Part shown: positions 22,967 through 59,739 of the stretch, piece by piece
Layout: the number at the start of each line of letters is the position of its first letter
Numbering within the stretch: the first letter of the stretch is position 1
Assembly (NCBI GenBank): GCA_020444515.1
Contig: JAHLKX010000002.1
Coordinates: 520,146 to 584,145 of the forward strand
DNA: 64,000 nucleotides
Source: Bacteroidota bacterium
GTDB taxonomy: Bacteria; Bacteroidota; Bacteroidia; Bacteroidales; JAADJA01
Direction of reading: 5' to 3'
Notes under the pieces: generated by a model
What the model was told of the DNA's origin: nothing
The model's database searches: none
The model's input: only the letters and a program-made list of their open reading frames with translations
Program-made: the position numbers and the translations under genes

Positions 22967-24490
22967 TTATTCCAGTGAGCCGGTCACTTTTTCAACTTCT
23001 TCAAGTACCTCACAGGACTTGATCAATGTCTTCATGGCGTTATGATCATTGTATAGCGGCCGGTCGATATCCAGGAATTCAACATGTCGTCTAACCACTT
23101 CCTTGGCTTTTGTAACACCCTTACCAAAATTATATTCCCTGAAATCGAGTGCTTGTGCAGCTGCCATCATTTCTATGCCAAGAATGCCATAGGCATTATC
23201 AAGGATCTGGAAGTTTTTCAATGCCGTGTTCATACCCATGGATACAAAATCTTCCTGATCGGCAGCTGCCGGAATCGACTGGATACTGGCCGGTGTCGAA
23301 AGGATACGTTGTTCAACGATTTGCATATCGGCAGCATACTGGCTTAACATCAATCCCGAGAACATGCCTGCTCCCTTGGTCAAAAAAGCAGGTAACCCCA
23401 CACTCAATGCGGGGTTGTTCAATCGGTTCATCCGTCGCTCCGACATCACACTGACCATGGTGATCGCTGCTCCGGCCATATCCATTGGCAATGCAACGGG
23501 TGTACCCTGAAAATTTGCACCGGAAATTTGTAAGTTTTCATCCGGGAAAAAAATGGGATTATCACCAACACCATTGAGTTCAATTTCAACCTGTGAACGG
23601 GCATAAGCCAGGGCGTCATGAGCGGCACCCACCACCTGTGGTGTTGAACGCATGGAATAAGCATCTTGAACTTTACAAGGAATTTTGCCTTCTTTGAGGT
23701 CACCGCCTTCCACCAGCTTGTTAATGGCATTGGCACTTCTGACAGCACCTTTGAATCCTCTTACTTCATGTAGTTTGGATGTATATGGTTTCATATTGGC
23801 TTTCAACGCTTCAAGTGACATAGCTGCAGCGATCTCAGCCTGCTTGAGCCATCGATTGGCATCATAAATAAAAATGGCACTCATGGCTGTCAGCACATTG
23901 GAACCATTGATGGTGGCCAGTCCATCCCGGGCTTTTAAACCCGGAACCGGAATGCCAGCCCGATCCAAAGCTTCTTTGCCGTCAAGCAGCTCATCTTTAT
24001 AAAATGCTTTGCCTTCGCCCATCATTAAAAGGGCGATCTGCGACATGGGTGCCAGATCGCCAGAGGCTCCTACCGAACCCTTCTGACAAACAAATGGCGT
24101 AACACCTTTATTCAGCATGTCGACCAGTGTTTGGGTAATCTCGGGCCTTACGCCTGAATTGCCATGGGCATGCACATTGATCCTTCCCAGCATGGCACCA
24201 CGCACCCACTCTTCAGGCATTGCCTCACCGATCCCGGCTGCATGATTGTAGATCAAATATTTCTGGAATTCTTTTACCTGGTCATCATTGAGCACTACTT
24301 CCGAAAACTCACCAATCCCGGTGTTGACACCATACATGATCTCATGGGCTTCAATTTTTTTCTCCAGCATAGCCCTGCATTTTGTAATCCGCTCAAGGGC
24401 ATCCGGATGCAATTCAACTTTTTGACGATGGCGAGCTACTTTGACGAGGTCTTCAATGGTCAAACCCGCACCTTTAATAATATATGTCAT
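22967..24490 (-). CDS. MIO-dependent aromatic amino acid/histidine ammonia-lyase family enzyme (divergent copy)
   Basis: 507 aa. The MIO triad 'GASGDLAP' places Ala142-Ser143-Gly144 at nt 24059-24067. The selectivity positions read 'IYNHAAG' (Asn82-His83), and 'QEDFVSMG' is present. Confidence 0.85.
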   Translation of the reverse strand: MTYIIKGAGLTIEDLVKVARHRQKVELHPDALERITKCRAMLEKKIEAHEIMYGVNTGIGEFSEVVLNDDQVKEFQKYLIYNHAAGIGEAMPEEWVRGAMLGRINVHAHGNSGVRPEITQTLVDMLNKGVTPFVCQKGSVGASGDLAPMSQIALLMMGEGKAFYKDELLDGKEALDRAGIPVPGLKARDGLATINGSNVLTAMSAIFIYDANRWLKQAEIAAAMSLEALKANMKPYTSKLHEVRGFKGAVRSANAINKLVEGGDLKEGKIPCKVQDAYSMRSTPQVVGAAHDALAYARSQVEIELNGVGDNPIFFPDENLQISGANFQGTPVALPMDMAGAAITMVSVMSERRMNRLNNPALSVGLPAFLTKGAGMFSGLMLSQYAADMQIVEQRILSTPASIQSIPAAADQEDFVSMGMNTALKNFQILDNAYGILGIEMMAAAQALDFREYNFGKGVTKAKEVVRRHVEFLDIDRPLYNDHNAMKTLIKSCEVLEEVEKVTGSLE

Positions 24491-25139: not shown

Positions 25140-26663
25140 TTACAGTTGAAATTTATTCACATCTTCCTTCGGCAATTCGAGCGGGTAATTTTTTAAAAAT
25201 TCTACCGAAGCCTTAATATCTTTGTACATCACCTGATCGTCTTCTACGAAGGCTACTTTTTCACGATATGCTTTTATAAAATTTTCAAGGTAGGGCGATG
25301 ATTTCGCCGGTCTTCTGAATTCCAGTGCTTGCGCGGCATTGAACAATTCAATAGCCAATATTCGTTCCAGGTTTTCAAGCACCCGAAATGTTTTGGTTGC
25401 AGCGTTGGCTCCCATGCTCACGTGGTCTTCCTGTCCTTTGGAGGATTCGATGGAATCGACGGAAGATGGGGTACAAAGCGATTTATTCTGGCTCACAATG
25501 GAAGCCGAAGTATATTGCGGGATCATAAATCCCGAATTCAAACCGGGATTGGCCACCAGGAATGGCGGCAACCCTCTTGCGCCTGAAAGCAACTGGTAGG
25601 TTCTTCTCTCAGAAATATTCCCCAATTCAGCCATGGCGATGGCGAGGTTATCCAGGGCCAGGGCCAAAGGTTGTCCATGGAAATTACCGGCCGAGATGAT
25701 CAGATCTTCATCCGGGAAAATGGTTGGATTATCCGTAACGGAGTTGATCTCTTTGCGGAACACATAAGCCACATAATTGATTGAATCCTTGGAAGCACCG
25801 TGCACCTGCGGAATACAGCGGAATGAGTAAGGATCCTGCACGTGTTCTTTTTTACGGTTGATCAGTTCGCTACCTTCCAGAATATTGGTGATCCGTTCAG
25901 CGGTTTTAATCTGCCCTTTGTGAGGGCGGATTTGCTGGATGAGGGGATGAAAGGGTTCAATCCTTCCATCAAACGCTTCGAGAGAGAGTGCTCCTATTAC
26001 ATCGGCCAGCCGGGAAAGTTTAAAGATCCGTAGGCAGCAATAAACACCATACGCACTCATGAACTGAGTTCCGTTGAGCAACGCCAGTCCGGCCTTGGAT
26101 TTGAGTTCGATTGGATCCCAATTCATCTCCTTCAAAACATCAGCAGAATCTCTTTTCTTACCTTTAAAATATACTTCACCCATGCCCAACAGCGGCAACG
26201 ACAAATGGGCCAGCGGCGCCAGATCACCCGAAGCTCCCAGGGATCCCTGTTGGTAAACAACCGGAATAATGTCATGGTTATAAAAATCAACCAACCTTTG
26301 CACTGTTTCCAGTTGCACGCCCGACAGGCCATAAGAGAGGCCCTGCACCTTTAGCAACAACATCAGCTTGACGATCTCCCGCGGTACCCCGTCGCCGGTT
26401 CCACAGGCATGCGACATTACCAGGTTTTTTTGCAAGGTACTCAGGTCTTTTTTATCGATGGTGCGGTTGTAGAGAGCGCCAAAGCCGGTATTGATCCCAT
26501 AAATGGGTTCGGTTTGGGATTCCATTTTTTTATCGAGGTAATCACGGCATCGGGTTATCTTCGATTTTGCTTCATCTGAAAGTTCGAGTTTTTTCTTGTA
26601 CCGGCTGATCTGCTCAATATCCTCAAAGTTGAGTTTGTCGGAAGTAACAAAGTGAACCGCCAT
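25140..26663 (-). CDS. hutH: Histidine ammonia-lyase
   Basis: 507 aa with 'GSLGASGDLAPLAHL' (MIO), 'NLVMSHACGTG' (the Ser-His pair typical of HAL) and 'QEDHVSMG'. Confidence 0.85.
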   Translation of the reverse strand: MAVHFVTSDKLNFEDIEQISRYKKKLELSDEAKSKITRCRDYLDKKMESQTEPIYGINTGFGALYNRTIDKKDLSTLQKNLVMSHACGTGDGVPREIVKLMLLLKVQGLSYGLSGVQLETVQRLVDFYNHDIIPVVYQQGSLGASGDLAPLAHLSLPLLGMGEVYFKGKKRDSADVLKEMNWDPIELKSKAGLALLNGTQFMSAYGVYCCLRIFKLSRLADVIGALSLEAFDGRIEPFHPLIQQIRPHKGQIKTAERITNILEGSELINRKKEHVQDPYSFRCIPQVHGASKDSINYVAYVFRKEINSVTDNPTIFPDEDLIISAGNFHGQPLALALDNLAIAMAELGNISERRTYQLLSGARGLPPFLVANPGLNSGFMIPQYTSASIVSQNKSLCTPSSVDSIESSKGQEDHVSMGANAATKTFRVLENLERILAIELFNAAQALEFRRPAKSSPYLENFIKAYREKVAFVEDDQVMYKDIKASVEFLKNYPLELPKEDVNKFQL

Positions 26664-45572: not shown

Positions 45573-48500
45573 ATGAAAAAATTTACTTTAAAAACTCAAA
45601 TTCCCAGATCACTATTAATTCCAATGTACACATTTGCAATTGCATTTTTGTGCTTTTGGTCTATTGATCTCGTCTCACAAACGAATATGGATATTGTTAA
45701 TGTTAATGTTACCAATGAACGACGATTGGATATTTCAATAAATGCCGAAACCAATCTGCAATTTGTGGAAAAGGAATATGGTGATAGAAACGTTTACAAG
45801 AACTTTTGGGTAAATGGAGCTTCCAAAGTGGCTCCGGGAAATCCAAATGTGCATAGTTATGCCAGGTGGATTTTAATTCCGAACGGAACCAAAATAAATA
45901 TCACATTTTCACATGGCTTACCGGTTGATTATGAAAACATTGATTTAGCTCCGGCCCAGCCGGAACCCTATGATAATGAAAATGCTCCACGACCTGCTTT
46001 TACAAAAAACGAAGTAGTTTATTCGCGCGATGCAGATTTCCCAGGTGTTTTTGCTGAAACAGATGGTATCAAGCGAAAAAGGGGGCAGGAGTTGACGCTT
46101 TTAACTATTTATCCTTATCAATATAATCCGGTACAAAAAAGACTTACGGTATACCCTGATTTGAAAATTACGGTAAGTTTCTCGGGGACCATCCACCCCA
46201 TTCCTCCTAATCTCAAAACAAAGAATCTTGAGTATTCGCTTAAATCAATGGCTATTAATGGAGAAGCTGTTTTGGCAGCTGAAGTAAGTGCAGGTACAAC
46301 TTCAAATGGCGATAATATAAATTATTCCAATGGATGCGACCTACTCATTATTACTGATCCTGCTTTTGAAAATGCAGCCAATACACTTGCTTCCTGGAAG
46401 ATCAGGAAAGGGATTTACACCTGGGTATACAATACCAGCGTTACCGGAAATACATTTACTCAAATAGAAAATTTTATTGATAATGCTTATGAAACCTGGT
46501 CGCCGGCTCCTGAATATTTATTGTTTATTGGAGATGCTGAAAACATTCCACCCGGTTATATATTGTATGAAGATGAAAATGATCTTGGTACAGATATTTT
46601 TTATGCTGACTACGATGATCCAATGGATTATGTTGCGGATTTCGGTTATGGCAGGTTGTCGGTTGATAATGTTGCTGATGCGGATAGTGTTGTGGCTAGA
46701 ATTATCCGCTATGAAAGGACACCTAGCACCAACCCCAATTATTACAATCAAATTCTAAATGCGTCTTGTTTTCAGGATGGTGAAAATGGAGTTGAAGGAG
46801 AACCCGATGAATTACCAGATCACTATGCCAACAGAAGGTTCTGTAAAACAAGTGAGGATGTGAGAAATTACCTTATGTCTCAGGGCTTTCTTTCCCAGCG
46901 TGAATATGTTGCTTACAATCGGGTAAATTATGATGAAATATTTCCTGAGAATTGGATGGATTTAAACCAAAGTTGGAGTGGTGGTATTTTTGAAAACGAC
47001 AATCCTCCAGATGGTGGTGATCCGATTCCAGCAGAGTTGTTAAAGCCCGGATTCCCATGGGATGGAAGCACGGCAGGTATTTCAGCAGCCTTTAACGCAG
47101 GTAAATTTTTTGCAATTTTCAGAGCTCATGGCAGCTGGTCTGGTTGGGGAGATCCCGATTTTCATAGCTGGAATGTAGATGCTTTAAATAATGGAGAGAA
47201 TCGTCCATTCATCTGGTCAATAACCTGCCAATCAGGGTGGTTTGATAATGAGACGGATAATGCCAGTTATGGGTCTTCAAATAGTCAGGAATGTTTTGCT
47301 GAACATTGGCTGAGGCATAATACTGGTGGTAGTTGCGGGATATTGGCAGCAGCCCGTAACTCTTCTTCAGGAAAGAATGACCGGTTAATCTGGGGGATGA
47401 TGGATGCCATTTGGCCCGGGTTTTTAACCTGGAGTATGGATCCATATGGGGGACCCGACCCTATTTACCGGATGGGGGATGTAATCAATTATGGTAAGGG
47501 GTATATGGCCACTAAATATCCGGGTTATGAAACAACAACTATTGCTCTGTTTCACTGGTTTGGCGACCCAACTTCGGAAATGTGGACATCACAGCCAAAT
47601 GAGTTGACTAATGCTTTGGTTACAAGTCCTATAAACATCGGAACTTCTTCCATTACAGTTCAGGTTACACCAGCTGTTGAAAATATGCTGGTTGCTATAT
47701 GTATGGAAAATAGTGATGATATATTTGGAACTGCTTATACGAATAGTTCAGGTATTGCAACAGTAAATTTGAATCATTCAATTACGTTGGAAGATGTTAT
47801 TTATGTCACCATTACAAAACACAATTACAAACCCTATGAATTTGAAGCGGGATGGAATATTCAAGGTATATGGTCAGGTTCTATTTCATCAGACTGGCAT
47901 AATGCCAATAACTGGACACCAAATCAGGTTCCGGATGCTAGCAATAGTGTATTAATTCCGAATGGCTGTTCGAATTATCCAGTTATCGTTTCACCAGTTG
48001 CGGAATGCGAAAATCTGCTTATTGCTCAAAATGCATCCGTTACAATTGGTAATACGCAATTGCATGTAAATGGCGATTTAACCGTTTTTGGGGAACTTGC
48101 CATGACAACCAGCAGCTCCAATTTACAAGTTACGGGTACCGTATCCTGGGAGGATGGTTCCTCAGCCAATATCACCAACGGATCAGCTATGATCGTTGCC
48201 TATTATGACTGGGTTTTTAAAACCGGCTCCAATGTTCACCTTGATAATGGATTTGTCAACTTCAGTGGCAACCTAAGCCAGGCAATTAAATGTAATTCAA
48301 CCGATAGCTATTTCAATCATCTGATCATTGCTAAGGATGAAAATAAGTATATGTATTACTCCGGATCATCAACAGAAGACATGGTAATCAAAGGAAATCT
48401 GTTTATTGACGCCGGTACAAGGTTACGTCACTATTCTGATAATAAAATGATTTTATATGGATTGTTTGATTGCGACGGAAGCCATTATTTTGCATCTGGA

Positions 48501-51500
48501 ACCTTTGTCTTTAATGGCCCTGCAACAAGCTTCAGTTCGAATACGAACAGTCATTTTAATAACCTTGAAATAAATTCTACTGGTAAAATTGATTTTCTGA
48601 CTGATGTTGAAATAAGGGGTGATCTAACCATCAATGCAGGGAGTCTGGATATCAATGGTCATGTTATTTCAATTGAAGGTGACTGGACCAATAATGTCGG
48701 GGTCTCAGCTTTTTATGGCACTAATGGAACGGTTGTTTTTACCGGTGATGTAAACCAATATATTACCGAAGATGAGACAATCAATATAATAGAACTGGAT
48801 AAAACTGGTGGAAGTCTGATTATTAACAACTTTGATACAGAAGTCACATGCAGTCAGTTCAACTGGACCCAGGGCAGATTAGAAATGCTAAATGGTGAAT
48901 TTACAGCATTTGACCTCACAGATAATGGCATTTTTGGAGATTATTATATGGAAGGAGGAACCATCAATTTGATGAATTATGATGGATTTGTTGACTTGAA
49001 CGGCGACTTGACCATAATGGGAGGATTTTTTAATGTTTATGGCGGGATTGATGATAGCTTTTGGTCCTATGCCGGAAATGCATCCCTGGTTATGACGGAC
49101 GGTATTTTAGATTTTCATGATGCAGGGATCAATGTTTTTGACTCTCCTACTTTTTCATTCAGTGAAAGCGTTTCAGGAGGAATTATCAAAACAACAGGTG
49201 ATTTTAATTGTGAACGTTCAGATTTTACAATCACAAATTGTGAACTTAGGATGTATGGACCAGAAAATGCTTTTATAAGCCAGGTTGAAGGTTGTCAATT
49301 TGATGATGTTCGGTTTGAGAAAGGAGCAGTAGATAATTCCACTTCTTTCATAACTCAGTCATTTAAAAAAGAAAGTCTTCAATTAAAATCCAGAAAAAAG
49401 AAGGGACTCAATTCACTTCAGAATTCAAAGAATGGCAGTAAAAGCAACCTTGTGAGCGCAGCATCGGATCTGCAAATTATGGGAACCCTGCGTGTTTCAG
49501 ATGGCGAATTTGACCTAAACGGAAACAAGGTGACTGTGGTAGACGATGTTATTGTTAGCGCCGATTTTACTATGAATAGCCCCGATGATGAATTATGGGT
49601 GGGTGATATGCTTAAATGGCAATCAGGAGCATATGGGAATATTACAGATGGCTTGATCAAATTTAAGGGTCTCTGGTCTTTTGAAGACGGGAGCAATGTT
49701 TTAATTTCCACTGGTAATTCAGCAATTGCCATCGGAACAGTAAATCAAAACATTAATTGTTATGATGATAATTCTGGTTTTGGTAACTTAATTCTAAATC
49801 AGCAAAGCACAGGAAAAACGATATCCAGTGCAGGATCACAACCCATCCGGGTTACCGGTGACCTAACCATTGATTCTGATAATACGCTCAATCTAAATAA
49901 TGACGATATGGTTGTATCCGGGCAGGTATTTACATATATTTCTTCATCCCTCATCGTTGAAAACGGAGGGAGTTTTACAGCTGAAAATGACTTTGATTTA
50001 TTTGGATCAGCCCATCTAATAGATGGAAATATCACAGTCAGTAATGATTTCTACCTTAACACCTCTGGAAACCTCATCATTGATGGTGGAAGTTTTATCA
50101 TGGATCGAAACAGTGTTGAGCAATTCCAGGTGTTGAACGGATACTTAGAAATGAATGGAGGTTTATTAGAAGCCACTTTCAACGGAATTATCTTTGGTCA
50201 GAATACCACACTGACAATGAGCGGTGGTGAAATTGCTACCGGATGGGATTTCAGTGCTTACCAGGACAATTTGTTTCAACCGGCCGGAGGTGCTGTAAGG
50301 ATGATCGGCATTGCCACTGCTTCGATTAACCTGAATGAAACTTGCTATTTTCATGATCTGATCATTGATAAACCGGTTAGCACTGAAGCCGACATCAGTC
50401 AAACCATTTTAGTCAAGAATGATCTAAAAATCGGATCGGGTATTTTTAATACAGCAGGATTTGATCTGATGGTAGAAAACGATGTCGTTATTGAACCCGA
50501 TGGTGTGCTTAATCCGGGGAACAATACGGTTACTGTCAGGGGTGACTGGAGCAACAATCATGGTGATGCCGGATTTCTTGAGAATAACAGTATTACAGTG
50601 TTTGTTGGAAATGAAACCTCACACATTCGCACAGATGAAACATTTTATGATTTACAAGTCGATAAAAACTACAGCCCATATACCTATTTATGGAGTGATA
50701 GCAATTATACGGTCAATGTTTGGCGTTTACTGATCAATACCTGCTCATACAGGCTGGATATTAATTCAACATTGAATGTTTCCGGAAATCTGGTAATCGG
50801 AGAAGATTGCAACCTTTTTGCTCCCAGCTCGGGTGATTCGTATATCAATATTCAGGGTAACTGGATCAATCAAAATACATCCGGTATTCCATGGGTTTAT
50901 GGATTTTTATATGGGACTTCTACGGTTACTTTTAATGGCATTGAAGATCAATTTGTTGAATCCGATAATGGAATGCAGGATTTTTACAATTTGGTTATTG
51001 ATAAAACAAATGGTGATTTTTATCCATTGGCTGATATTGAAATATATAATGACCTAAACATCAATAATGGAATTTGGGGTATGGATTCACCTGGTCAAAC
51101 ATTTTCTTTTTATGGTGATGTCAATATCGCCTCAAATGGTGAATTTTATGATTTTACATCCACTGTCAATATATTTGGATCAGATCAGCAATCTTTTACT
51201 AATTTGGGTCCGTGGACGTCCTATGTTGGCTCTCTGAATATTGCAATGACTTCATCCTCTGCGGATAATTTACCGGTGTTTACCATCCTGGGTAAAATGC
51301 AATGTTCCGGTTCCGTTAATGTAAATAATGGGAACTTTGATTTGAATTCTCAAACGGTTGAATGCCTTGAAAATTTTACGATTAATGAAGATGGTAAAGT
51401 AACGGCAACCGGTCAATCAAAAATTGCAATGGGAGATGGAAGCGCCTTATCGGTTAGTGGCGGGGAATTGTATATTGTTGGTGGTGCACCTCCAAATCCC

Positions 51501-54500
51501 ATTGTTACATCCGTGAGTGGAAATTATGAATTCAGTGTTTTAAATGGGGGCTTGTTAACAGCAGCAAATGCTGTCTTTCAATACATGGATGCCTCGGGTG
51601 TGAATATTTATCCAACGGGAGTATTATTTGATATCAATCCATTTAATCAATGTGCATTCCTGAATGGAGAAGCAGGAGGAACATTGTTGCAAATTAATAA
51701 TGATCAGGATCTGGTTTTCAACACCGTTAATTTCTCAACAAACACCTGGGGTGGGACTTATAATGTTACCAAAAATAACAATGAAGGATCGATCAATTTT
51801 ATTAACTATTTAGGTGATTTTAGTGGAGAAACCTATGAAAATGATCCTTACAATAGGATAACATGGGGCAATCCGGTGCCAGGTATCTGGACTGGAGCCG
51901 TGAGTCAGATATGGAATTTGGCAGGAAACTGGGAAAATAGTTTAAAACCAACTGCAACTGATGATGTGTATATTCCTGCTGGAACTCCCAATGATCCCTG
52001 GGTATCACAGGCAGACCAGGAATGCAATAACATCATCATTGATCCGGGTGCCAGTTTGAGAATTTACGATGAAATACTTACTGTTCACGGAGATATGTAT
52101 GTTCATGGAGAGCTCAAAATGGATCATGTTTCTGGTGTGTTAAATGCAGGTGATGGCTTTGGTGATAAAATAGTTTGGGAGGCCGGATCAACAGATAACA
52201 TTACACTGGGTACGATCAATGTATATGGGGACTGGTACTTTAATAATGGTACAAGCGCACAGTTGGGAGTCGGAAATGTGGTTAATTTTTATGGCACCAA
52301 TCGTTCGTATATTTATTGCGATGATGATGATGCCGCCTTTGGAAATATAACTATAAATAAAACAGCCTCACCAAAAGACTTTGTTTATGTCCCTGCAAAT
52401 AATAGTCTCAGGGTGTTGGAAGATTTATATGTTTTTGATGGAATTCTGGATCTGAAAGAAAATAGCTATTGTAATGTTGGAAATGAATTCGTTATCATCA
52501 GCGGTTGTACGCTAAATTCTCTGGGTACCCCCGGGAACGAGGCTACCATTTCAGGATTTCCAAATTATTGTATGTTGGATATCGATAATGGGGCTACCAT
52601 CAGTGCTGAATATACGATTTTTGAATACCTCGAGGGCAATGGACTTTCAATAAACCCAACGGCTACCATTGATCCGCTCCATCCGCTTAATCATTGTACT
52701 TTCAGAGAGAGTCCAGCAGGAGGGAAATTATTAACCATTGCCAATGATCAGATACTGACAATTGATGGTGCAACATTTCCTCACAATTACTGGAGTGGTT
52801 CGAACAATGTATCAAAAATAAATGATGCAGGCCACATCACCTTTACCAATGTCGATGGTGGTTTTGTGGGATCTAATTATGAAAATGATCCCTATAATAG
52901 GGTTGATTGGCCGGGGGTGGTTCCCGGTATCTGGACAGGTGCAGGAAACAGCTTGTGGAATGTTTTAGTGAACTGGAAGTATGAATTAAGACCCACCGCA
53001 ACAGATGATGTAATTATTCCGGCCGGTACACCGCATGATCCAAGAGTGACTTTACTGCCTCAGGAATGCAATAGTATTACGGTTGAAGCGGGTGCATCCC
53101 TCGAAATTTATAATCAAATATTGAATGTTCACGGCGATTTGATCATTCACGGTGAGTTGATCATGAATCATGCAGGCAGTGAATTGTATGCGGGTGATTC
53201 CTTTGGTGATGAAATCAGCTGGGAACCAGGCTCTAAAGCCGATGTGAATTATGGTACCATTTACGTTTATGGAAACTGGAATTTTAAAGATGGTACCGAT
53301 GCCCAGTTTGGTTGGGGTAATACTGTTGTATTTAATGGAGGTAATTTTTCAACGATTTATTGTGATGACGATAATGCAACATTTGGAAATCTGACCATCA
53401 ATAAACCCACTCCACCCAAAGATTTTGTTACAGTGTCCACCAATCATGTTTTAAGGGTTGCTGAAGACTTTTATATTGGAGATGGGAGTTTAAGGATATT
53501 TGAAAATACCACATTTACAGTTGGGAATGAATTGTATGTTGATGACGGTGCAATGCTGATTTCAATGGGTACGGCGGGTAACAATGCCTTAATAAGCGGA
53601 ACTTCCAATTATTGTTTATTGGAAATCGCGAGTGGTGCGACCATTAGTGCGGAATATACGGATTTTCAATTTCTAGAAGGCCAAGGACTTACGATCAATC
53701 CGGGTGCAATCATTGATCCACTGCACCCCTTAAATTATTGTTCATTTAGTGAAAGCCCGGCCGGAGGAACTTTGTTGACCATTGAGAATGACCAGGTAGT
53801 GACCATTGATGGGGTGAACTTTCCACCCAACAGCTGGGGTGGAGCCAATAATGTTACCAAATCATTTGATCAGGGACAGGTTATATTTACCAATGTGCAG
53901 GGAACCTTTGTAGGAGCGGATTTTGAAAATGATCCCAATGACCGGATTGACTGGCCGGGGATCGTGGCGGGTATATGGACAGGCGCTGTAAGTACCATTT
54001 GGGATGATCCCGCAAACTGGGCCTATCATTTGAAACCGGATGTCTCAGATGATGTTGTGATCCCGGCAGGTACAGCTCACGATTGCTGGGTTACCAATGC
54101 TGATCAGGAATGCAACTCAGTGACCATTGAAAGTGGAGCAACCCTGGTCGTTTACGATAAAGTTTTAACGGTTTATAGCGACATCATTATAAACGGACAA
54201 TTAAAAATGGATCATCCATCAGGTGTTTTAAATGCAGGTGATGGATTTGGTGACCTTGTTTCATGGGAGCCGGGTTCCTCTGCGGCTGTTACTGCTGGAA
54301 CCATTAATGTATATGGTGACTGGTATTTCAATAATGGAATTGATGCCCAGTTTGGATCCGGAAATACAGTGGTTTTTATGGGTACCAACCGTTCTCATAT
54401 TTACTGGGATGATTTTGATGCCGAATTTGGAAATCTGATCGTTAATAAATCAGCTTCACCCAAAGACTATGTTTATATTGCGGCTTATGATTCAATATTG

Positions 54501-55763
54501 ATCGCAGAAGATGTATACATCATGGATGGTGTTCTTGAAATTGGTTACGGAGCCCGGTTTTATGTAGGGAATGAGTTTTATGTAGAAGATGGAGGAAGCC
54601 TGATGGCCATGGGATTGCCGGGAAGGGACATCGTTATTTCCGGATGGCCGGACCACTGTTTGATGGAAATTGCTGATGGAGGGAAGATCGGTGCCCAGTA
54701 TACCGTTTTTGATCACCTGGGATATTATGGATTAACCATTAATCCGGGAGCAACAATTGACCCGTCCTATGCATTTTCGAATTGCACATTCCAGGAAGGA
54801 TTAGCAGGTGGAAATGTATTAACAATTAACAACGACCAGGATTTGACCATTTACAATGCCCATTTCCCATCCAATACCTGGGGTGGCGATTATAATGTTT
54901 CAAAAAGTGCCTCATCCGGAGATATTAACTTCATGGATGCCTCAGGGGTGTTCAGGGGTGAAGATTATGAAAATGATCCCAATAACCTGATCCACTGGGG
55001 ACTCCGCAATATAGACCTGAACCTCAAGGTTTATCTGGAAGGTCCTTATCTTCCGGCATCAGGTGGATTGATGACGACCGAATTGAATACAGGTGGATAT
55101 ATTCCTTTGGCTCATCCATATAATCCTTCGTTACCTTATTACGATATTTCCAATCCGGCTGATTTGAAATGGCTTTATACAGGGACGGAGAGTGTAACCA
55201 GTATACCCATGAATGCAGTGGATTGGGTCCTGGTTCAGTTGCGCGATGCCACCTCAGCTGCCACTGCCACCTCAGCTACCATACTTGAAACACAGGCTGC
55301 CTTCCTGATGAACGATGGTTCTATCGTTGGTCTGGATGGTGTTTCGCCTATTCATTTTTTCCTGGCTTATTCCAATAATCTGTATGTGGTCATATTCCAC
55401 CGCAACCACCTGGCTATTATCTCTAATAATCCGTTGGTGGAATCTGGCGGCTTGTATTCACATGATTTTTCATCATCCGAAATGCAAGCGCTGGGTGGCG
55501 CTAATGGACATAAGGAATTAGAACCGGGTGTCTGGGGGATGGTCTCCTCCGATGGCAATGGAAATGGTCTGATACAAAATACGGATGAGACCGCCGTTTG
55601 GAAAACGGACCTTGGAAGCTCAGGCTACCGGGGTGGTGATTTTAATATGAACGGCCTCACCCAGAATACCGATGAAACCAATTACTGGAAAGTAAATTTA
55701 GGTTCCGGAGGGCAAACACCCGGGAAAAACAATACCGGGTACGAAAGCCAGGTGCCAGATTAA
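45573..55763 (+). CDS. Giant (3396 aa) secreted protein: gingipain-like C25 cysteine peptidase head, beta-helix-like repeat body, non-T9SS C-terminal module
   Basis: N-terminal hydrophobic signal. Propeptide-like 'ELTLLTIYPYQYNPVQKRLTVYPDLKITVSF'. C25 motifs 'YLLFIGDAENIPP' and 'YADYDDPMDYVADFGYGRL'. The catalytic His/Cys context 'FRAHGSWSGWGD...NRPFIWSITCQSGWF' has the His codon at 47127 and the Cys codon at 47226. A GGAGG lies 5 nt before the ATG. Confidence 0.85.
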   Translation: MKKFTLKTQIPRSLLIPMYTFAIAFLCFWSIDLVSQTNMDIVNVNVTNERRLDISINAETNLQFVEKEYGDRNVYKNFWVNGASKVAPGNPNVHSYARWILIPNGTKINITFSHGLPVDYENIDLAPAQPEPYDNENAPRPAFTKNEVVYSRDADFPGVFAETDGIKRKRGQELTLLTIYPYQYNPVQKRLTVYPDLKITVSFSGTIHPIPPNLKTKNLEYSLKSMAINGEAVLAAEVSAGTTSNGDNINYSNGCDLLIITDPAFENAANTLASWKIRKGIYTWVYNTSVTGNTFTQIENFIDNAYETWSPAPEYLLFIGDAENIPPGYILYEDENDLGTDIFYADYDDPMDYVADFGYGRLSVDNVADADSVVARIIRYERTPSTNPNYYNQILNASCFQDGENGVEGEPDELPDHYANRRFCKTSEDVRNYLMSQGFLSQREYVAYNRVNYDEIFPENWMDLNQSWSGGIFENDNPPDGGDPIPAELLKPGFPWDGSTAGISAAFNAGKFFAIFRAHGSWSGWGDPDFHSWNVDALNNGENRPFIWSITCQSGWFDNETDNASYGSSNSQECFAEHWLRHNTGGSCGILAAARNSSSGKNDRLIWGMMDAIWPGFLTWSMDPYGGPDPIYRMGDVINYGKGYMATKYPGYETTTIALFHWFGDPTSEMWTSQPNELTNALVTSPINIGTSSITVQVTPAVENMLVAICMENSDDIFGTAYTNSSGIATVNLNHSITLEDVIYVTITKHNYKPYEFEAGWNIQGIWSGSISSDWHNANNWTPNQVPDASNSVLIPNGCSNYPVIVSPVAECENLLIAQNASVTIGNTQLHVNGDLTVFGELAMTTSSSNLQVTGTVSWEDGSSANITNGSAMIVAYYDWVFKTGSNVHLDNGFVNFSGNLSQAIKCNSTDSYFNHLIIAKDENKYMYYSGSSTEDMVIKGNLFIDAGTRLRHYSDNKMILYGLFDCDGSHYFASGTFVFNGPATSFSSNTNSHFNNLEINSTGKIDFLTDVEIRGDLTINAGSLDINGHVISIEGDWTNNVGVSAFYGTNGTVVFTGDVNQYITEDETINIIELDKTGGSLIINNFDTEVTCSQFNWTQGRLEMLNGEFTAFDLTDNGIFGDYYMEGGTINLMNYDGFVDLNGDLTIMGGFFNVYGGIDDSFWSYAGNASLVMTDGILDFHDAGINVFDSPTFSFSESVSGGIIKTTGDFNCERSDFTITNCELRMYGPENAFISQVEGCQFDDVRFEKGAVDNSTSFITQSFKKESLQLKSRKKKGLNSLQNSKNGSKSNLVSAASDLQIMGTLRVSDGEFDLNGNKVTVVDDVIVSADFTMNSPDDELWVGDMLKWQSGAYGNITDGLIKFKGLWSFEDGSNVLISTGNSAIAIGTVNQNINCYDDNSGFGNLILNQQSTGKTISSAGSQPIRVTGDLTIDSDNTLNLNNDDMVVSGQVFTYISSSLIVENGGSFTAENDFDLFGSAHLIDGNITVSNDFYLNTSGNLIIDGGSFIMDRNSVEQFQVLNGYLEMNGGLLEATFNGIIFGQNTTLTMSGGEIATGWDFSAYQDNLFQPAGGAVRMIGIATASINLNETCYFHDLIIDKPVSTEADISQTILVKNDLKIGSGIFNTAGFDLMVENDVVIEPDGVLNPGNNTVTVRGDWSNNHGDAGFLENNSITVFVGNETSHIRTDETFYDLQVDKNYSPYTYLWSDSNYTVNVWRLLINTCSYRLDINSTLNVSGNLVIGEDCNLFAPSSGDSYINIQGNWINQNTSGIPWVYGFLYGTSTVTFNGIEDQFVESDNGMQDFYNLVIDKTNGDFYPLADIEIYNDLNINNGIWGMDSPGQTFSFYGDVNIASNGEFYDFTSTVNIFGSDQQSFTNLGPWTSYVGSLNIAMTSSSADNLPVFTILGKMQCSGSVNVNNGNFDLNSQTVECLENFTINEDGKVTATGQSKIAMGDGSALSVSGGELYIVGGAPPNPIVTSVSGNYEFSVLNGGLLTAANAVFQYMDASGVNIYPTGVLFDINPFNQCAFLNGEAGGTLLQINNDQDLVFNTVNFSTNTWGGTYNVTKNNNEGSINFINYLGDFSGETYENDPYNRITWGNPVPGIWTGAVSQIWNLAGNWENSLKPTATDDVYIPAGTPNDPWVSQADQECNNIIIDPGASLRIYDEILTVHGDMYVHGELKMDHVSGVLNAGDGFGDKIVWEAGSTDNITLGTINVYGDWYFNNGTSAQLGVGNVVNFYGTNRSYIYCDDDDAAFGNITINKTASPKDFVYVPANNSLRVLEDLYVFDGILDLKENSYCNVGNEFVIISGCTLNSLGTPGNEATISGFPNYCMLDIDNGATISAEYTIFEYLEGNGLSINPTATIDPLHPLNHCTFRESPAGGKLLTIANDQILTIDGATFPHNYWSGSNNVSKINDAGHITFTNVDGGFVGSNYENDPYNRVDWPGVVPGIWTGAGNSLWNVLVNWKYELRPTATDDVIIPAGTPHDPRVTLLPQECNSITVEAGASLEIYNQILNVHGDLIIHGELIMNHAGSELYAGDSFGDEISWEPGSKADVNYGTIYVYGNWNFKDGTDAQFGWGNTVVFNGGNFSTIYCDDDNATFGNLTINKPTPPKDFVTVSTNHVLRVAEDFYIGDGSLRIFENTTFTVGNELYVDDGAMLISMGTAGNNALISGTSNYCLLEIASGATISAEYTDFQFLEGQGLTINPGAIIDPLHPLNYCSFSESPAGGTLLTIENDQVVTIDGVNFPPNSWGGANNVTKSFDQGQVIFTNVQGTFVGADFENDPNDRIDWPGIVAGIWTGAVSTIWDDPANWAYHLKPDVSDDVVIPAGTAHDCWVTNADQECNSVTIESGATLVVYDKVLTVYSDIIINGQLKMDHPSGVLNAGDGFGDLVSWEPGSSAAVTAGTINVYGDWYFNNGIDAQFGSGNTVVFMGTNRSHIYWDDFDAEFGNLIVNKSASPKDYVYIAAYDSILIAEDVYIMDGVLEIGYGARFYVGNEFYVEDGGSLMAMGLPGRDIVISGWPDHCLMEIADGGKIGAQYTVFDHLGYYGLTINPGATIDPSYAFSNCTFQEGLAGGNVLTINNDQDLTIYNAHFPSNTWGGDYNVSKSASSGDINFMDASGVFRGEDYENDPNNLIHWGLRNIDLNLKVYLEGPYLPASGGLMTTELNTGGYIPLAHPYNPSLPYYDISNPADLKWLYTGTESVTSIPMNAVDWVLVQLRDATSAATATSATILETQAAFLMNDGSIVGLDGVSPIHFFLAYSNNLYVVIFHRNHLAIISNNPLVESGGLYSHDFSSSEMQALGGANGHKELEPGVWGMVSSDGNGNGLIQNTDETAVWKTDLGSSGYRGGDFNMNGLTQNTDETNYWKVNLGSGGQTPGKNNTGYESQVPD
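51834..54965 (+). repeat. Three in-frame tandem coding repeats of exactly 1044 nt (348 codons) inside the giant gene
   Basis: The unit landmark 'YENDPYNR(I/V)(T/D)W' or 'FENDPNDRIDW' recurs at 51834, 52878, 53922 and 54966. A partial unit (the last ~120 aa) precedes 51834. Confidence 0.9.
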
Positions 55764-55785
55764 GAATGAACAACTGTTGATTAAA

Positions 55786-55814
55786 GGCTGCTCTGATAGA
55801 GCGGTCTTTTTTTT
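55786..55814 (+). terminator. Rho-independent terminator of the giant gene
   Basis: ggctgctc-tgata-gagcggtc (8 bp including two G-U pairs) followed by T8. Confidence 0.8.
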
Positions 55815-55894
55815 GGATTTTGCTCTGGGTGCATTGAAATGCAAAAAATAGTTACACCCGCGTTGCAAACGCAGGCGAGAAACGGGGCGACCTT

Positions 55895-56025
55895 TATTTT
55901 TACTTTATTACCTCAATCACTAAATCGCTCGAGCGTTCCCAAATAGATAATGTGAAAGCATTACTCGTGCATTTTTTACAAGGCATCAGTCACGCGAATA
56001 TTCAGTCCTGGGCTTGAAGACTGGC
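55895..56025. repeat. Structured intergenic repeat, copy A (one ~55-nt core)
   Basis: It shares blocks with 56958-57183: 'cctcaatcac', 'atcgctcgagcgttcccaaatagataatgtgaaagc...', 'cgaatattcag' and 'aagactggc'. It is GC-richer than the adjacent ORF. Confidence 0.7.
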
Positions 56026-56049
56026 AACAATTGGGGCCAGTCACTTTTG

Positions 56050-56949
56050 TTAAATTCCCTTGAGTGTCATAATTATTCCTTGTTTCAAGGATGTAATATC
56101 TTCTTGGCCTTTTATATCTAGTTCCTCAATTATTTCAATAATATTTTCAATTTTTGTTTCTTTCTTCAATAATTTCGTAATTATTTGGCTTAGCATATTT
56201 ATTGTCCTGTCTTCATTTCTTGAGATATTTAATGCTGGTACATTTATTACATAACCATCTTTATCCTCAAACTCTAAATCATATCTTTCTTTTCCATTTT
56301 GTCCAATTACCATAACAATCAGTCCATCTTCAATCCAGGGTGGTAAATAAAAATCGCTAACTTTTAAAATATAAATTTCAACTGGCATCCCTAAATCATA
56401 CCCTAAAACCGCAATATAACCTTCTCTATTAATATCAAATCTAAATATTTTACATTTGATTTTTTTTGGTCTATTGTATTTTTTATTTTTTTTTGGAATA
56501 AACTGGTCGAGTCGTTTACCTACTTTTAAAACTAATTCATCTGGATTTCTGAAGTAATCTATTGTGTGCCTTTGCTTTAGTTTTTTTTTGAAATCTTCAA
56601 GTTTCTTGTAATTTTCAAAGTCTATAAATTTTGGTAATATTAAGCTTTCACTTTCATCAATTAAATAGATAAATATTTCTTTGTTCTTTTCATAAGCAAC
56701 TTCATATTCAATTTCTGTAAATGATTTTTTTGTTTTTCTATCGGTGCTGCCGTATCTCATACCTATAATTCCAAGGTATATATCACATTCGTAAGCAAAT
56801 TCAATACAAGTTTCCAATGGAGTAGTTGTTCTTGCGCCAAATTCTTCCATCCCTCTTACTATTAATTTAAAATTTTTAAGCAATTCCCAAATAGCTTTTC
56901 GATGAGGTATTAGATCAATGTAAGTTGATGATACAAATATCTTTTTCAT
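56050..56949 (-). CDS. DUF4062 (TIR-like) domain protein with uncharacterised C-terminal domain
   Basis: 'MKKIFVSSTYIDLIPHRKAIWELL...ECDIYLGIIGMRYGS...FTEIEYEVAYEKNKEIFIYLID' matches the DUF4062 signature as I remember it. The coding sequence is very AT-rich compared with the flanks. Confidence 0.7.
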   Translation of the reverse strand: MKKIFVSSTYIDLIPHRKAIWELLKNFKLIVRGMEEFGARTTTPLETCIEFAYECDIYLGIIGMRYGSTDRKTKKSFTEIEYEVAYEKNKEIFIYLIDESESLILPKFIDFENYKKLEDFKKKLKQRHTIDYFRNPDELVLKVGKRLDQFIPKKNKKYNRPKKIKCKIFRFDINREGYIAVLGYDLGMPVEIYILKVSDFYLPPWIEDGLIVMVIGQNGKERYDLEFEDKDGYVINVPALNISRNEDRTINMLSQIITKLLKKETKIENIIEIIEELDIKGQEDITSLKQGIIMTLKGI

Positions 56950-56957
56950 TTATTGCT

Positions 56958-57183
56958 ATAACTTTACTTTGTCTTTAATTGATTTCTTCCTCAATCCACG
57001 AGTGTTCATTTTAAGCAAGAGAGCTTGCATCACTCTTGCGTTGATAACAAGGCACCAGTCACAACAGCACACGAGCCTTGATCGCGCGAGTGTTTCTGCA
57101 AAGATAGTGCGAAAGCGTCACTCGTGCATTAAAACACGAGGCTTCAGTCGCACGAATATTCAGCCCTGAGCTGTAAGACTGGC
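56958..57183. repeat. Structured intergenic repeat, copy B (two ~55-nt cores)
   Basis: Cores at about 57022-57072 and 57107-57160. The hairpin at 57107-57153 has stems gtgcg/cgcac, aagc/gctt and ctcgtg/cacgag. The repeat covers the last 8 codons and the stop of the 57160-57657 ORF. Confidence 0.7.
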
Positions 57184-57657
57184 GCCTGATAGCGTATTAA
57201 ATATAATCTTTTTTGATTTTTCCTCAAAACCGACTAGGTCATTTTTGCTCCAGCCTAAGCGGTTCACCTCTCTAATTTCGGCAATGAACTTTTTATTATC
57301 ATAAAAAGTCAGGGCATTTATAATATTCCCGATGCCGTAACTTTTCTTTTTAAAAAATACTTTTAGGTCTTCGTAAGGAATGCTCTGCTGGGATTTTAAA
57401 AATGTAAACTGGTAATAGCTTAGAATTAGTTTTTTATTTGCGTCATCAAAAAAAACTTCGAAAATGAGCCTGGTATTCTTTCTAAACAACAATAGTATTA
57501 TAAGTGAAACAAGGGAAATTTCAATTTTAATCCAATTTTGGACAAACAACTCCAGATTGTAAAATGCCAGAAAAGAATTCACAATTAGGATGTAATAAAC
57601 TTCTCCATTAATCCGGTTAATCCAACTTATTTTTTTAAGATAATTATTACGTTCCAT
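57160..57657 (-). CDS. Hypothetical 2-TM membrane protein with small soluble C-terminal domain
   Basis: 165 aa with TM helices 'VYYILIVNSFLAFYNLELFV' and 'IEISLVSLIILLLF'. AT-rich, and on the same strand as the DUF4062 gene. Confidence 0.55.
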   Translation of the reverse strand: MERNNYLKKISWINRINGEVYYILIVNSFLAFYNLELFVQNWIKIEISLVSLIILLLFRKNTRLIFEVFFDDANKKLILSYYQFTFLKSQQSIPYEDLKVFFKKKSYGIGNIINALTFYDNKKFIAEIREVNRLGWSKNDLVGFEEKSKKIIFNTLSGASLTAQG

Positions 57658-57797
57658 AAATTACAAATCACACCGTTCTCGTCATCTTGTATAACGAGGA
57701 CGAAATTTACATAGAATTTTTCAGTTACATTGTAAATTGTTGTTTATAAAACCTTCGCATATCTTAAGGTGCAGGAGCACATTATTTTTATTTTTCG

Positions 57798-57805
57798 TAA
57801 TTTTG
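57798..57805 (+). promoter_or_regulatory. Candidate Bacteroidota -7 promoter box (TAnnTTTG)
   Basis: 'taattttg', 45 nt upstream of the ATG at 57850. Confidence 0.3.
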
Positions 57806-57849
57806 GAAATCGAATAATAGCATTTCAATTCAATTAAAAATCAATTACT

Positions 57850-59739
57850 ATGAAAAAACTACTACTTATTTGTTTTTCACTCAGTTTTGTGTTTTCAATT
57901 TATGCCCAGCAGCGCACAGTGCCAACCAAAGCCATGCGCGACTTTGCGGTACGCAAAGGACAACCCGTTCACTTTGAAACCGGATTTGAAAAAACAGCCG
58001 GAATCCCTGCCTTGAAAAGTGTGACAGAAGTTGAGGAAGAGATCATTGGTGCCACCCGTTATGACCTGCAGTCTAATGCGAGTTGCCAAAACCGTTTGCA
58101 TGTTTTTGAAGATGGTACCATAGGTGCCACCTGGACCATGGGTTTTGAGGATCCTGGTTTTTCTGATCGTGGTACCGGTTATAATTATTTTGATGGATCA
58201 GAATGGGGCGAAATACCAACACAACATATTGAAAGTTTGCGCACTGGCTGGCCTTCATACGCACCTTATGGTGAGAATGGAGAGCTAGTTGTTTCGCATG
58301 ATTTTGGCCCGGCTCCTGCAGGTGATCCCGGAACGCTTCGTATAAATATTAGAGATACTAAAGGCAGTGGGGTATGGGCTGAAGATGTGTTTTATGGTCC
58401 GGATATCGAAATATCATGGCCACGAGCCACAACCTCGGGAATTGATAATAGTGTAATCCAGATGCTGGCCATCACCTGGCCCACACCCAATGGTGGTCCT
58501 GTTTATGAAGGCTTGGATGGAGCCTTGCTTTATTCACGCTCTGCAGATGGCGGTGCTACCTGGGATCCTCAAAATATGATCCTTGAAGGAATTTCATCTG
58601 ATTATTATTTTGGATTTTCAGCAGATGATTATGATTGGGCCGCATCACAAGGAGATAACATTGCTTTCCTTGCTGGAAATTCATGGTATGACTTCATCTT
58701 GATGAAATCGACGGATGGTGGTGATACCTGGGAAAAAACGGTGATCTGGGAGCATCCCTATCCATTCTTCAGCACGACAACCCCTATTGAAACCGATACT
58801 TTCTATTGTGTTGACGGCGCTCACCACCTGGCTTTCGATTCGCAAGGTAAGGTACACGTTGTCTTTGGAATCAACCGGGCTTATGCAGACGCAGCCGGAA
58901 CATATTGGTTCCCCCTTGTGGATGGTGTGGGCTACTGGAATGAAGATATGCCAACGTTCAGCAATGATCTCAATGCACTGAATCCATATGGTGAAGCAGG
59001 CACTGAACTTGTAGAAGATGAAAGCCTGATTGGTTGGTGGCAGGACCTGAATAACAATGGTGAATGGGATATCCTGGGAGAAGTTGGTGCTTATTACATT
59101 AGTGCATCCGGAATGCCGCAGATCGTAATTGATGATATGGACTATATTTATCTCGTATTTTCAGGGGTAACTGAGTCTTATAATAACGGTGCACAGGATT
59201 TCCGCCACATTTGGGCAAGGGGTTCCTGGGGTGAAGGCGTTTGGGGTGATTTTATTGATCTTACCGGCGATCTGATCCACATCTTTGATGAATGTGTATT
59301 TCCATCAGCTGCTCCGGCAACGGATGATTATTTCTACCTTATGTTCCAGACGGATGCTGAACCAGGACTGGCTGTTCGTGGTGACGAAGATCCTTATACA
59401 GATAATAATATGTATTTTATGAAAGTGAGCCGCAACGACCTTATTCCGGTTGGTGTTGAAGAATTATCCGAGCCCATTACCGCTGAGGGTGTCTCTCAAA
59501 ATATGCCCAATCCGTTTACTGGAACTTCATGGGTAAACATAGAGGTTCAGAAAACCTGTGATCTGAGTCTTGAGGTGACCAACATTACCGGACAGGTTGT
59601 ATATGCCATTGCCCCAAAAGAATTTCAGGCTGGATCTTACCGGCTTCCCATTCACGCCGAAAACCTGACCAAAGGTGTTTATTTTTACACTGTGAAAGCC
59701 GGGGATACTTCAGTAACAAAGAAAATGATTGTTGAATAG
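57850..59739 (+). CDS. Secreted Asp-box beta-propeller-like protein with T9SS type-A C-terminal domain (paralog 4 of 4)
   Basis: Signal peptide MKKLLLICFSLSFVFSIYAQ. Asp-boxes 'SADGGATWD' and 'STDGGDTWEK'. C-terminal domain 'VSQNMPNPFTGTSWV...GVYFYTVKAGDTSVTKKMIVE'. Confidence 0.8.
   Translation: MKKLLLICFSLSFVFSIYAQQRTVPTKAMRDFAVRKGQPVHFETGFEKTAGIPALKSVTEVEEEIIGATRYDLQSNASCQNRLHVFEDGTIGATWTMGFEDPGFSDRGTGYNYFDGSEWGEIPTQHIESLRTGWPSYAPYGENGELVVSHDFGPAPAGDPGTLRINIRDTKGSGVWAEDVFYGPDIEISWPRATTSGIDNSVIQMLAITWPTPNGGPVYEGLDGALLYSRSADGGATWDPQNMILEGISSDYYFGFSADDYDWAASQGDNIAFLAGNSWYDFILMKSTDGGDTWEKTVIWEHPYPFFSTTTPIETDTFYCVDGAHHLAFDSQGKVHVVFGINRAYADAAGTYWFPLVDGVGYWNEDMPTFSNDLNALNPYGEAGTELVEDESLIGWWQDLNNNGEWDILGEVGAYYISASGMPQIVIDDMDYIYLVFSGVTESYNNGAQDFRHIWARGSWGEGVWGDFIDLTGDLIHIFDECVFPSAAPATDDYFYLMFQTDAEPGLAVRGDEDPYTDNNMYFMKVSRNDLIPVGVEELSEPITAEGVSQNMPNPFTGTSWVNIEVQKTCDLSLEVTNITGQVVYAIAPKEFQAGSYRLPIHAENLTKGVYFYTVKAGDTSVTKKMIVE

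Follow-up and report, generated by a model that had tools for sequence, protein, structure and literature searches.

We analysed a 64-kb stretch of a Bacteroidales chromosome (the window). It carries three diverged copies of one non-coding element, denoted A, B2 and, for a partial copy, B1, all oriented like the two minus-strand open reading frames (ORFs) that they accompany; the copies bracket a gene of the DUF4062 family. We consider the element to be, probably, an inter-cassette junction module of a small, strain-variable chromosomal cassette array. This reading is carried by a repeat family with a regular layout, by presence/absence and strain polymorphisms at the locus, and by a breakpoint that lies inside the module.

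Copies A (55893-56038) and B2 (57071-57198) align in two ungapped blocks of 78% and 83% identity with a single 1-nt indel, and the start-to-start distance between them is 1157/1158 nt, in agreement with the unit length of 1158 bp given in the first-pass annotation. B1 (56981-57066) is a partial copy, matched by nhmmer at E 2e-6 over model positions 37-112. For a 19-nt core pattern there are two occurrences where 0.06 are expected. Further copies within the 64 kb were found neither with the hidden Markov model (HMM) nor with the covariance model. The first-pass annotation had proposed that genuine repeat copies bracket the DUF4062 gene, and that the second of them fills the spacer between the two genes, contains the core twice and provides the upstream 165-aa ORF with its final codons and stop. 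The alignments, the HMM match and the core count bear this out, the doubled core being B2 plus the partial copy B1. The positions that it gave relative to the two ORFs are correct, with A starting 24 nt past the DUF4062 stop. The claim that the repeats are GC-richer than the ORFs also holds: the copies have 39-52% GC, versus 27% for the DUF4062 gene, 32% for the 165-aa ORF and 22-40% for the other intergenic regions of the window.

The same layout is found in relatives. The array is flanked on one side by a conserved gene for a 629-aa protein sorted by the type IX secretion system (T9SS), which is its 5′ neighbour and divergently transcribed, and on the other side by a giant surface-protein gene; the flanking genes have 43-46% GC. 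The 629-aa protein has many orthologues, the closest of which (P0060, 630 aa, 84% identical) is present on five contigs. At the same position and in the same orientation as the window array, loci L023 and L024 carry other small AT-rich ORFs (27-39% GC) that are separated by homologous modules. The order in L023 is a 190-aa ORF, a module, a 177-aa ORF, a module and a further ORF cut off by the contig end. In L024 the same 190-aa ORF and a module are followed by a different ORF of 132 aa, a terminator-like module and, at the contig end, the head of a new module. These modules were found with models built from the window alone: the A+B2 HMM (nhmmer, E 4.8e-8, 6.2e-6 and 1.5e-5), an HMM of the 3′ block from the three window copies (E 3.8e-10 to 7.2e-7) and a covariance model (E 0.015, 0.021 and 1.2). 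The A+B2 covariance model found no copies in the loci of DUF4062 homologues or in L005, a relative described below. The 177-aa protein of L023 gives a weak signal for MORN-variant repeats (Pfam, E 0.025), and the other cassette proteins of L023 and L024 have no convincing family match. Thus, the ORF-plus-repeat cassette layout suggested in the first-pass annotation is upheld at this locus, where unrelated ORFs lie between homologous modules and the content varies by strain.

Comparison of the copies defines the anatomy of the module. A 5′ block (CCAAY..G-GCCAGTCTTC.A.CC) begins 5-75 nt after the upstream stop codon. It is followed, in the relatives only, by a middle stretch of ~110-150 nt, and the window copies are internally deleted versions of the module. 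The 3′ block of ~75 nt contains the segments S1 (YTYGTG) and S2 (CACGAG), a CTTTG/CTTTT box and the motif GAACACTCG.GC.ATTGAGGTA. Beyond it lies a cassette-specific leader of 20-40 nt and then the start codon. B1 comprises the 3′ block and part of the preceding sequence; because it has no head, the 3′ block of B2 together with B1 resembles a unit that has no ORF. The 3′ blocks are 62-67% identical among the window copies and 51-66% identical between the window and the copies of the relatives. Divergence within the genome thus equals divergence between genomes, which points to an old module family that moves with the cassettes and not to a recent local duplication.

Evidence for exchange comes from the comparison of L023 with L024. 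The two agree at 2906 of 2906 positions, a stretch that starts at the 630-aa gene, spans the first cassette and takes in most of the first module. The first mismatch falls immediately 3′ of S2; from there 5 of 47 positions differ up to the end of the 3′ block, after which the cassettes are unrelated. We interpret this switch from identity to divergence within the module as one crossover of a cassette exchange that took place inside it, the cassette travelling with the 3′ block in front. The crossover can be placed only at or 5′ of the first mismatch. If the parental modules were as diverged as the other copies are, it would lie within ~10-20 nt of S2.

Three more assemblies of the P0060 lineage break at or just within the first cassette (L021:1-30, L022:1-240 and L025:1-120). 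L025 holds a diverged allele of the 190-aa ORF, in which the last 72 nt before the contig end contain 13 mismatches and the adjoining ~440 nt contain 0. These breaks and the L025 allele point to further strain variation at the hotspot. The longer modules of the relatives also contain an opposite-strand ORF of 50-54 aa (L023:1218-1382 and L024:764-916, both on the + strand), which converges on the first cassette ORF so that it covers the stop of that ORF. In a second copy (L024:1-120) all nine of the nine differing codons are non-synonymous and a stop follows after 23 codons; this ORF is therefore probably not a gene.

Another relative, L005, has the locus in an empty state. The 165-aa membrane-protein ORF, the first gene of the window array, has only two relatives in the protein collection, orthologues of 155 aa (L005) and 150 aa (L006) with 78-81% identity that end in ...KKI followed by the stop. 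L005 is a 22-kb JGI contig that is syntenic with the window (a 625-aa T9SS gene, the 155-aa ORF and the 3′ end of the giant gene). Its homology to the window ends at 57205, and the 155-aa gene runs straight into the shared terminator region, with neither a DUF4062 gene nor the repeat in between. The flanks, which are 88-90% identical, are separated by 52 nt in L005 versus 1361 nt in the window. As L005 keeps the orthologue of the 165-aa ORF and has neither the DUF4062 gene nor the repeat, the ~1.3 kb between 55891 and 57195 is an indel; L001 and L002 match the window sequence exactly. The indel sits between the old stop codon of the resident gene and the terminator-like hairpin of that gene. 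A 5-nt difference (ATATT, 57200-57204) destroys the old stop, and in consequence the 165-aa ORF runs on into B2 before it ends, taking the final ~15 codons and the stop (57160-57204) from inserted DNA. The low GC content (27%) of the DUF4062 gene, the patchy distribution of its family and the broken stop codon favour gain in the window rather than loss in the relatives. Just 5′ of the start of the 165-aa ORF the sequence TGTAAATTTCGTCCTCGTT is conserved in three lineages (window 57660-57705, L005:5965-6000 and L006:950-985), and the L005 version of this region forms a clear hairpin (TCGTCCTCGTT...ACGAGGACGA).

The array is closed by a different, terminator-like module on the minus strand, in which a terminator scan places a hairpin at 55877-55855. 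Homologues of this end-of-array module lie 3′ of the 155-aa ORF in L005 (6480-6535) and 3′ of the 132-aa cassette ORF in L024 (100-165). Its hairpins share a TGC loop (CGTT-TGC-AACG and TGCATT-TGC-AATGCA types) and are kept in three lineages. The module terminates the array in the window and in L005; in L024 it is internal and the head of a new module comes next.

These observations are consistent with a model in which AT-rich foreign ORFs, the cassettes, would be exchanged through recombination within the module. Since exchange would take place inside the module, a 3′ block would precede and a 5′ block follow each cassette as it moves. The window array would then consist of the 165-aa gene as the resident, a half unit that has no ORF (B2/B1) and a single cassette with the putative DUF4062 NADase. 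All of these lie between the old stop of the resident gene and its terminator, and so could be read through from the resident promoter. The segment would have been inserted by recombination at the module, and the agent may be a trans-acting tyrosine recombinase, as in rAID-1 arrays (recombinase-associated acquired interbacterial defence), or general homologous recombination that follows DNA uptake and uses the module as a patch of homology; both fit. We speculate, tentatively, that the module is a new class of recombination site, read by its primary sequence and not as a folded attC, in an integron-like cassette system with which environmental Bacteroidales would store defence genes at a fixed hotspot, the recombinase being encoded elsewhere or not at all. 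If this is true, the L023/L024 breakpoint beside the S1/S2 hairpin would mark the crossover point and provide a handle on how rAID-type arrays are built.

Several points weigh against a junction module in a cassette array. No module lies 5′ of the gene with which the array begins. In 34 window ORFs scanned with Pfam (the giant ORF and a 1024-aa ORF between HlyD and OEP not among them), 0 integrase, recombinase or transposase domains were detected. The L023/L024 breakpoint fits ordinary homologous recombination equally well. L005 and L006 are sisters (88% identical to each other, versus 79% for either against the window), which is why parsimony does not settle gain here versus loss in L005 and L006. 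The locus is known from three genomic lineages, and the array contigs of the relatives stop within the array. Finally, exact-pattern scans of genome, metagenome and viral contig collections returned only chance matches within coding genes, a weak negative because 17-21 exact positions were needed and copies at 60-80% identity (below ~95%) are missed.

The main rival for the primary function is that the module chiefly serves expression, acting in the sense transcript as an intercistronic hairpin, a terminator, an insulator or an internal promoter, that it owes its conservation to this, and that exchange merely makes use of its homology. We regard this as unlikely, although a role in expression may coexist with a junction role. 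The element does sit within a transcription unit, between the resident stop and the terminator-like hairpin. B2 folds into a three-stem hairpin that is very stable (-21.7 kcal/mol, z -4.2), but the same stretch folds no better than shuffles in A (z -1.3) and B1 (z -0.2), and the segment behind the two outer stems is missing from the copies of the relatives. The three stacked stems described in the first-pass annotation are therefore a strong feature of B2, and not of A or B1. Whole modules do no better than shuffles: on either strand those of the relatives are less stable than their shuffles (z +0.8 to +1.9), and A ranges from z -1.1 to +1.0. S1 and S2 can pair in six of six copies (92% of cells), and G-U pairs, workable only in sense-strand RNA, account for 8 of the 33 paired cells; an alternative pairing of S2 with S3 is possible in 85% of cells. 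Neither helix shows covariation across the copies. For S1:S2 the pairing value across all six equals that of the shuffled control, and for S2:S3 there is none beyond shuffles. The covariation expected from more copies thus did not appear, and the compensatory change previously noted in the inner stem hinges on the position chosen for the 1-nt gap in the alignment of B1 with B2. When mutation was simulated, the substitutions between A and B2 kept the predicted pairs better than random mutation of A (p 0.007), but the result was not significant when B2 was mutated (p 0.14). B2 also has an exact Bacteroidetes -7 box, TAnnTTTG (TATCTTTG). The box is degenerate in the other copies and its frequency in the window is that of chance, and we rejected a promoter reading on these grounds. 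Rfam 15 gave 0 matches at gathering score over the whole window, and only chance-level matches at E up to 10 over 55700-57900. The structured 3′ untranslated-region RNA that had been offered as a candidate, or any globally structured RNA, is accordingly rejected: Rfam offers no match, and at full length the modules do not outfold their shuffles. Conservation resides mainly in blocks of primary sequence, which fits a large structured RNA less well than recognition of the DNA by a protein, or short local signals.

That the copies are functionless leftovers of a duplication, either a tandem duplication in the donor or the terminal redundancy of an integrated concatemer, is improbable and already hard to hold. 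This would explain why an enzyme close by, a significant global structure and further copies in the public-data scans are all missing, and the divergence between A and B2 (~20%) is close to that between the window and L005 (20-23%). It does not account for a second species in which homologous modules separate unrelated ORFs and mark the breakpoint of a strain-level exchange, for blocks that are as conserved across species as within the genome, or for a module GC content well above the intergenic baseline. Still less probable is a true integron cassette array of the CALIN type (attC-site clusters that have no integron integrase) with the elements as attC sites, which the first-pass annotation had put forward. 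The ORFs are indeed co-oriented, AT-rich and apparently promoterless, and each is followed by a similar element. The stop of three of the four cassette ORFs reads TAAC, which recalls RYYYAAC, and the segment, when its right end is joined to its left, gives back the ...TAAAG/GTTATA (the slash marks the joint) that is seen before the DUF4062 start (rough p ~0.04); both are weak and unproven leads. A DUF4062 homologue in L018 is flanked by a 10-bp inverted repeat (GTTAACCACA/TGTGGTTAAC). However, a regular-expression scan of 55800-57300 on both strands (AAC and GTT exact, at least three of four degenerate positions, 45-160 nt apart) found 0 RYYYAAC...GTTRRRY pairs, compared with a window background of ~4 per 1.5 kb. 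The ATTTAAC that overlaps the DUF4062 stop has no partner, and the similarity to ATTTAAY is not significant (p 0.27; as a unit start, p 0.27-0.5, and rejected). Single-strand folds with DNA parameters do not beat shuffles in any copy (A, z +1.04/+0.47; B2, z -1.45/-1.51; B1, z -0.12/-0.80), the ends of a circularised A site do not pair, and the units are 130-330 nt long, at or above the attC range. No IntI is present among the scanned window ORFs, and integrons are very rare in Bacteroidetes (10.1101/2022.02.28.482270). An attC identity was therefore discarded for want of an R″/R′ pair, of a single-strand hairpin beyond shuffles and of an integrase. The TAAC stops themselves (ATTTAAC, window 56050-56056; GATTAAC, L023:1379-1385; CCCTAAC, L023:521-527) resemble R″ (RYYYAAC), with no matching R′. 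We give the least credence to a family of repetitive extragenic palindromes (REP, or the mosaic BIME) or miniature inverted-repeat transposable elements (MITE) that flanks these genes by chance. The element is short, non-coding, GC-richer and has hairpins, as such families would; but neither the rest of the window nor ~290 kb of other loci holds a copy, there are no terminal inverted repeats or target-site duplications, and the element always lies in one orientation between co-oriented ORFs. The REP/MITE candidate of the first-pass annotation was dropped for these reasons.

Other classes were rejected as well. A protein-coding remnant is contradicted by stops in all frames of A and by the 1-nt indel, which shifts the frame between A and B2. 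The template and variable repeats of a diversity-generating retroelement do not fit, as adenines are not singled out by the mismatches and a reverse transcriptase is absent. Nothing was found in support of a retron, a type III toxin-antitoxin RNA or an NAD riboswitch, and the geometry does not suit IS200/IS605-like subterminal hairpins or Xer/dif-like sites. A search for tRNA or tmRNA genes as a possible attachment site found none, and the 1.3-kb segment had no BLAST match among plasmids or phages.

The cargo of the inserted segment is a 299-aa protein with an N-terminal DUF4062 and a C-terminal auxiliary region of ~150 aa. A profile of 16 full-length homologues matches the structure of KpSwz (Swarozyc, PDB 10wc_A) over profile positions 3-175 (E 9.5e-14). 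E81 is invariant in the 16 homologues, and E79 aligns with the catalytic Glu of KpSwz. Proteins in which DUF4062 is joined to a C-terminal auxiliary region were described in 2026 as abortive-infection defences that consist of a single gene and deplete NAD+ (10.64898/2026.05.01.722283; 10.64898/2026.06.25.731849; 10.64898/2026.09.04.749371). From its sequence, the 299-aa protein is a likely candidate for a single-gene NADase of this anti-phage kind, Swarozyc/Evangelion-like. It resembles the Swarozyc, Evangelion and NIR proteins in architecture and size (299 aa versus 326 aa), in the sequence match to KpSwz and in a patchy distribution prone to horizontal transfer. It differs from Swarozyc in that only the N-terminal half aligns (profile positions as above), the auxiliary region being unrelated in sequence. 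Flanking repeat modules are not described in the three papers cited above.

Homologues with 41-54% identity occur in varied, often defence-type neighbourhoods with TIR, Nmad2/3, CAP12-TIR or AAA_22 genes. In Lutibacter (L014:7900-10906) a homologue lies ~2 kb from a TIR_2 gene and a gene for a 1240-aa DUF4062-STAND NTPase, which places two DUF4062 proteins in one defence-type island. Neither the element nor flanking direct repeats of their own were found at seven loci of DUF4062 homologues; the module therefore belongs to the array and not to the DUF4062 gene family, and a family property was ruled out. The closest homologue (54% identity) fills a 1-kb contig (L018:1-1006). The inverted repeat that flanks it is perfect, one arm lying 11 nt before the ATG and the other 2 nt past the stop, and it resembles cassette boundaries or short terminal inverted repeats.

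Table 1. Positions of the array features in the window.
Feature	Position	Strand	Details
165-aa membrane-protein ORF, first gene of the array	57160..57657	-	Conserved in relatives up to ~57205
Module copy B2	57071..57198	-	5′ block 57198-57144 (head GCCAGTCTT...); 3′ block 57160-57071
Stems of B2	S1 57140-57135; S2 57126-57121; S3 57082-57074	-	
Exact TAnnTTTG box of B2	57106-57099	-	
Module copy B1	56950..57066	-	Headless half unit: 3′ block 57066-56981 and AT-rich tail that reaches the first codon of the DUF4062 gene
DUF4062 + auxiliary-region gene, 299 aa	56050..56949	-	27% GC; Pfam PF13271, E 4.9e-23
Cassette-specific 3′ spacer after the DUF4062 stop	56026..56049	-	GACTGGC pairs with GCCAGTC of the head, 7 bp
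Module copy A	55891..56038	-	5′ block 56038-55983; 3′ block 56002-55914; tail to ~55891; no ORF after it
End-of-array module	55830..55877	-	Two small hairpins: CGCCTGCGTT-TGC-AACGCGGGTG, then a T run; TGCATT..AATGCA
~1.3-kb segment missing in L005 (B2, B1, DUF4062 gene, A)	55891..57195	-	Ends uncertain by a few nt

The giant gene next to the array (45573-55763, +) encodes a 3396-aa secreted protein with several near-identical internal repeats of ~330 aa, and the Logan contigs of the strain break within it. Elsewhere in the window, two tandem paralogues of an aromatic amino-acid lyase (22967-24490 and 25140-26663, both on the - strand; 507 aa each, PF00221), with 649 nt of spacer between them, adjoin a histidyl-tRNA synthetase-like gene.

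Among known systems the array is closest in description to the rAID-1 arrays of Bacteroidales (Ross et al., 10.1101/471110; PMC12247911). It shares with them the host order, small genes of ~100-300 codons that point the same way, strain-variable content and likely defensive cargo. rAID-1 arrays have at least two co-directional downstream genes with no more than 41% GC; here the two genes have 32% and 27%, and the L023 and L024 cassettes fall within the same limit. Repetitive, conserved intergenic sequences reminiscent of integrons are a further likeness, compared by description only since the rAID-1 motif is published as logos. rAID-1 is, however, defined by a tyrosine recombinase that is XerD-like, lies 5′ and has at least 44% identity to BF9343_RS08045 (10.1101/471110), and no XerD-like recombinase domain was found in the window ORFs scanned. 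The array is also very short (two genes), and its cargo is a candidate anti-phage NADase, a DUF4062 effector-type protein, and not a type VI secretion system immunity gene. As GC content, orientation and repeats agree while the recombinase is missing from the window, we file the array as a variant of the rAID-1 kind and not as a member.

Integron and CALIN arrays offer a second comparison. Like them, the array has ORF-plus-site periodicity, promoterless AT-rich cassettes in one orientation, sites that are alike within one array, an exchange point within the site such that a cassette carries parts of two sites, and small defence genes as cargo. Sedentary chromosomal integrons store anti-phage genes, and small anti-phage genes are known integron cargo (10.1101/2024.07.02.601686). 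The IntegronFinder 2.0 work places very few integrons in Bacteroidetes, as noted above. The likeness in layout extends to L023 and L024, which share the flank and the first cassette, differ in the second and have their breakpoint in the module. Unlike integrons, the array has no R″/R′ core sites, no long bulged single-strand hairpin and no integron integrase in the scanned ORFs, and its modules are conserved in primary sequence, not in structure, at the lengths given above.

Arrays of small defence genes with repetitive intergenic sequences are widespread in Bacteroidales (rAID-1, PMC12247911), and how rAID-1 arrays arise and how they gain and swap genes is explicitly described as unresolved (PMC12247911). 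The locus analysed here offers a minimal case, consisting of a resident gene, an empty unit and a cassette, together with an empty-site relative and a pair of strains that switch from identical to different inside the module. With these three in hand, the recombination site becomes a testable question. At the same time a DUF4062 NADase, the candidate member of a defence family first described in 2026, travels as a cassette of the array. This would extend the array kind from interbacterial immunity to likely anti-phage cargo, and also to an array without an adjacent recombinase.

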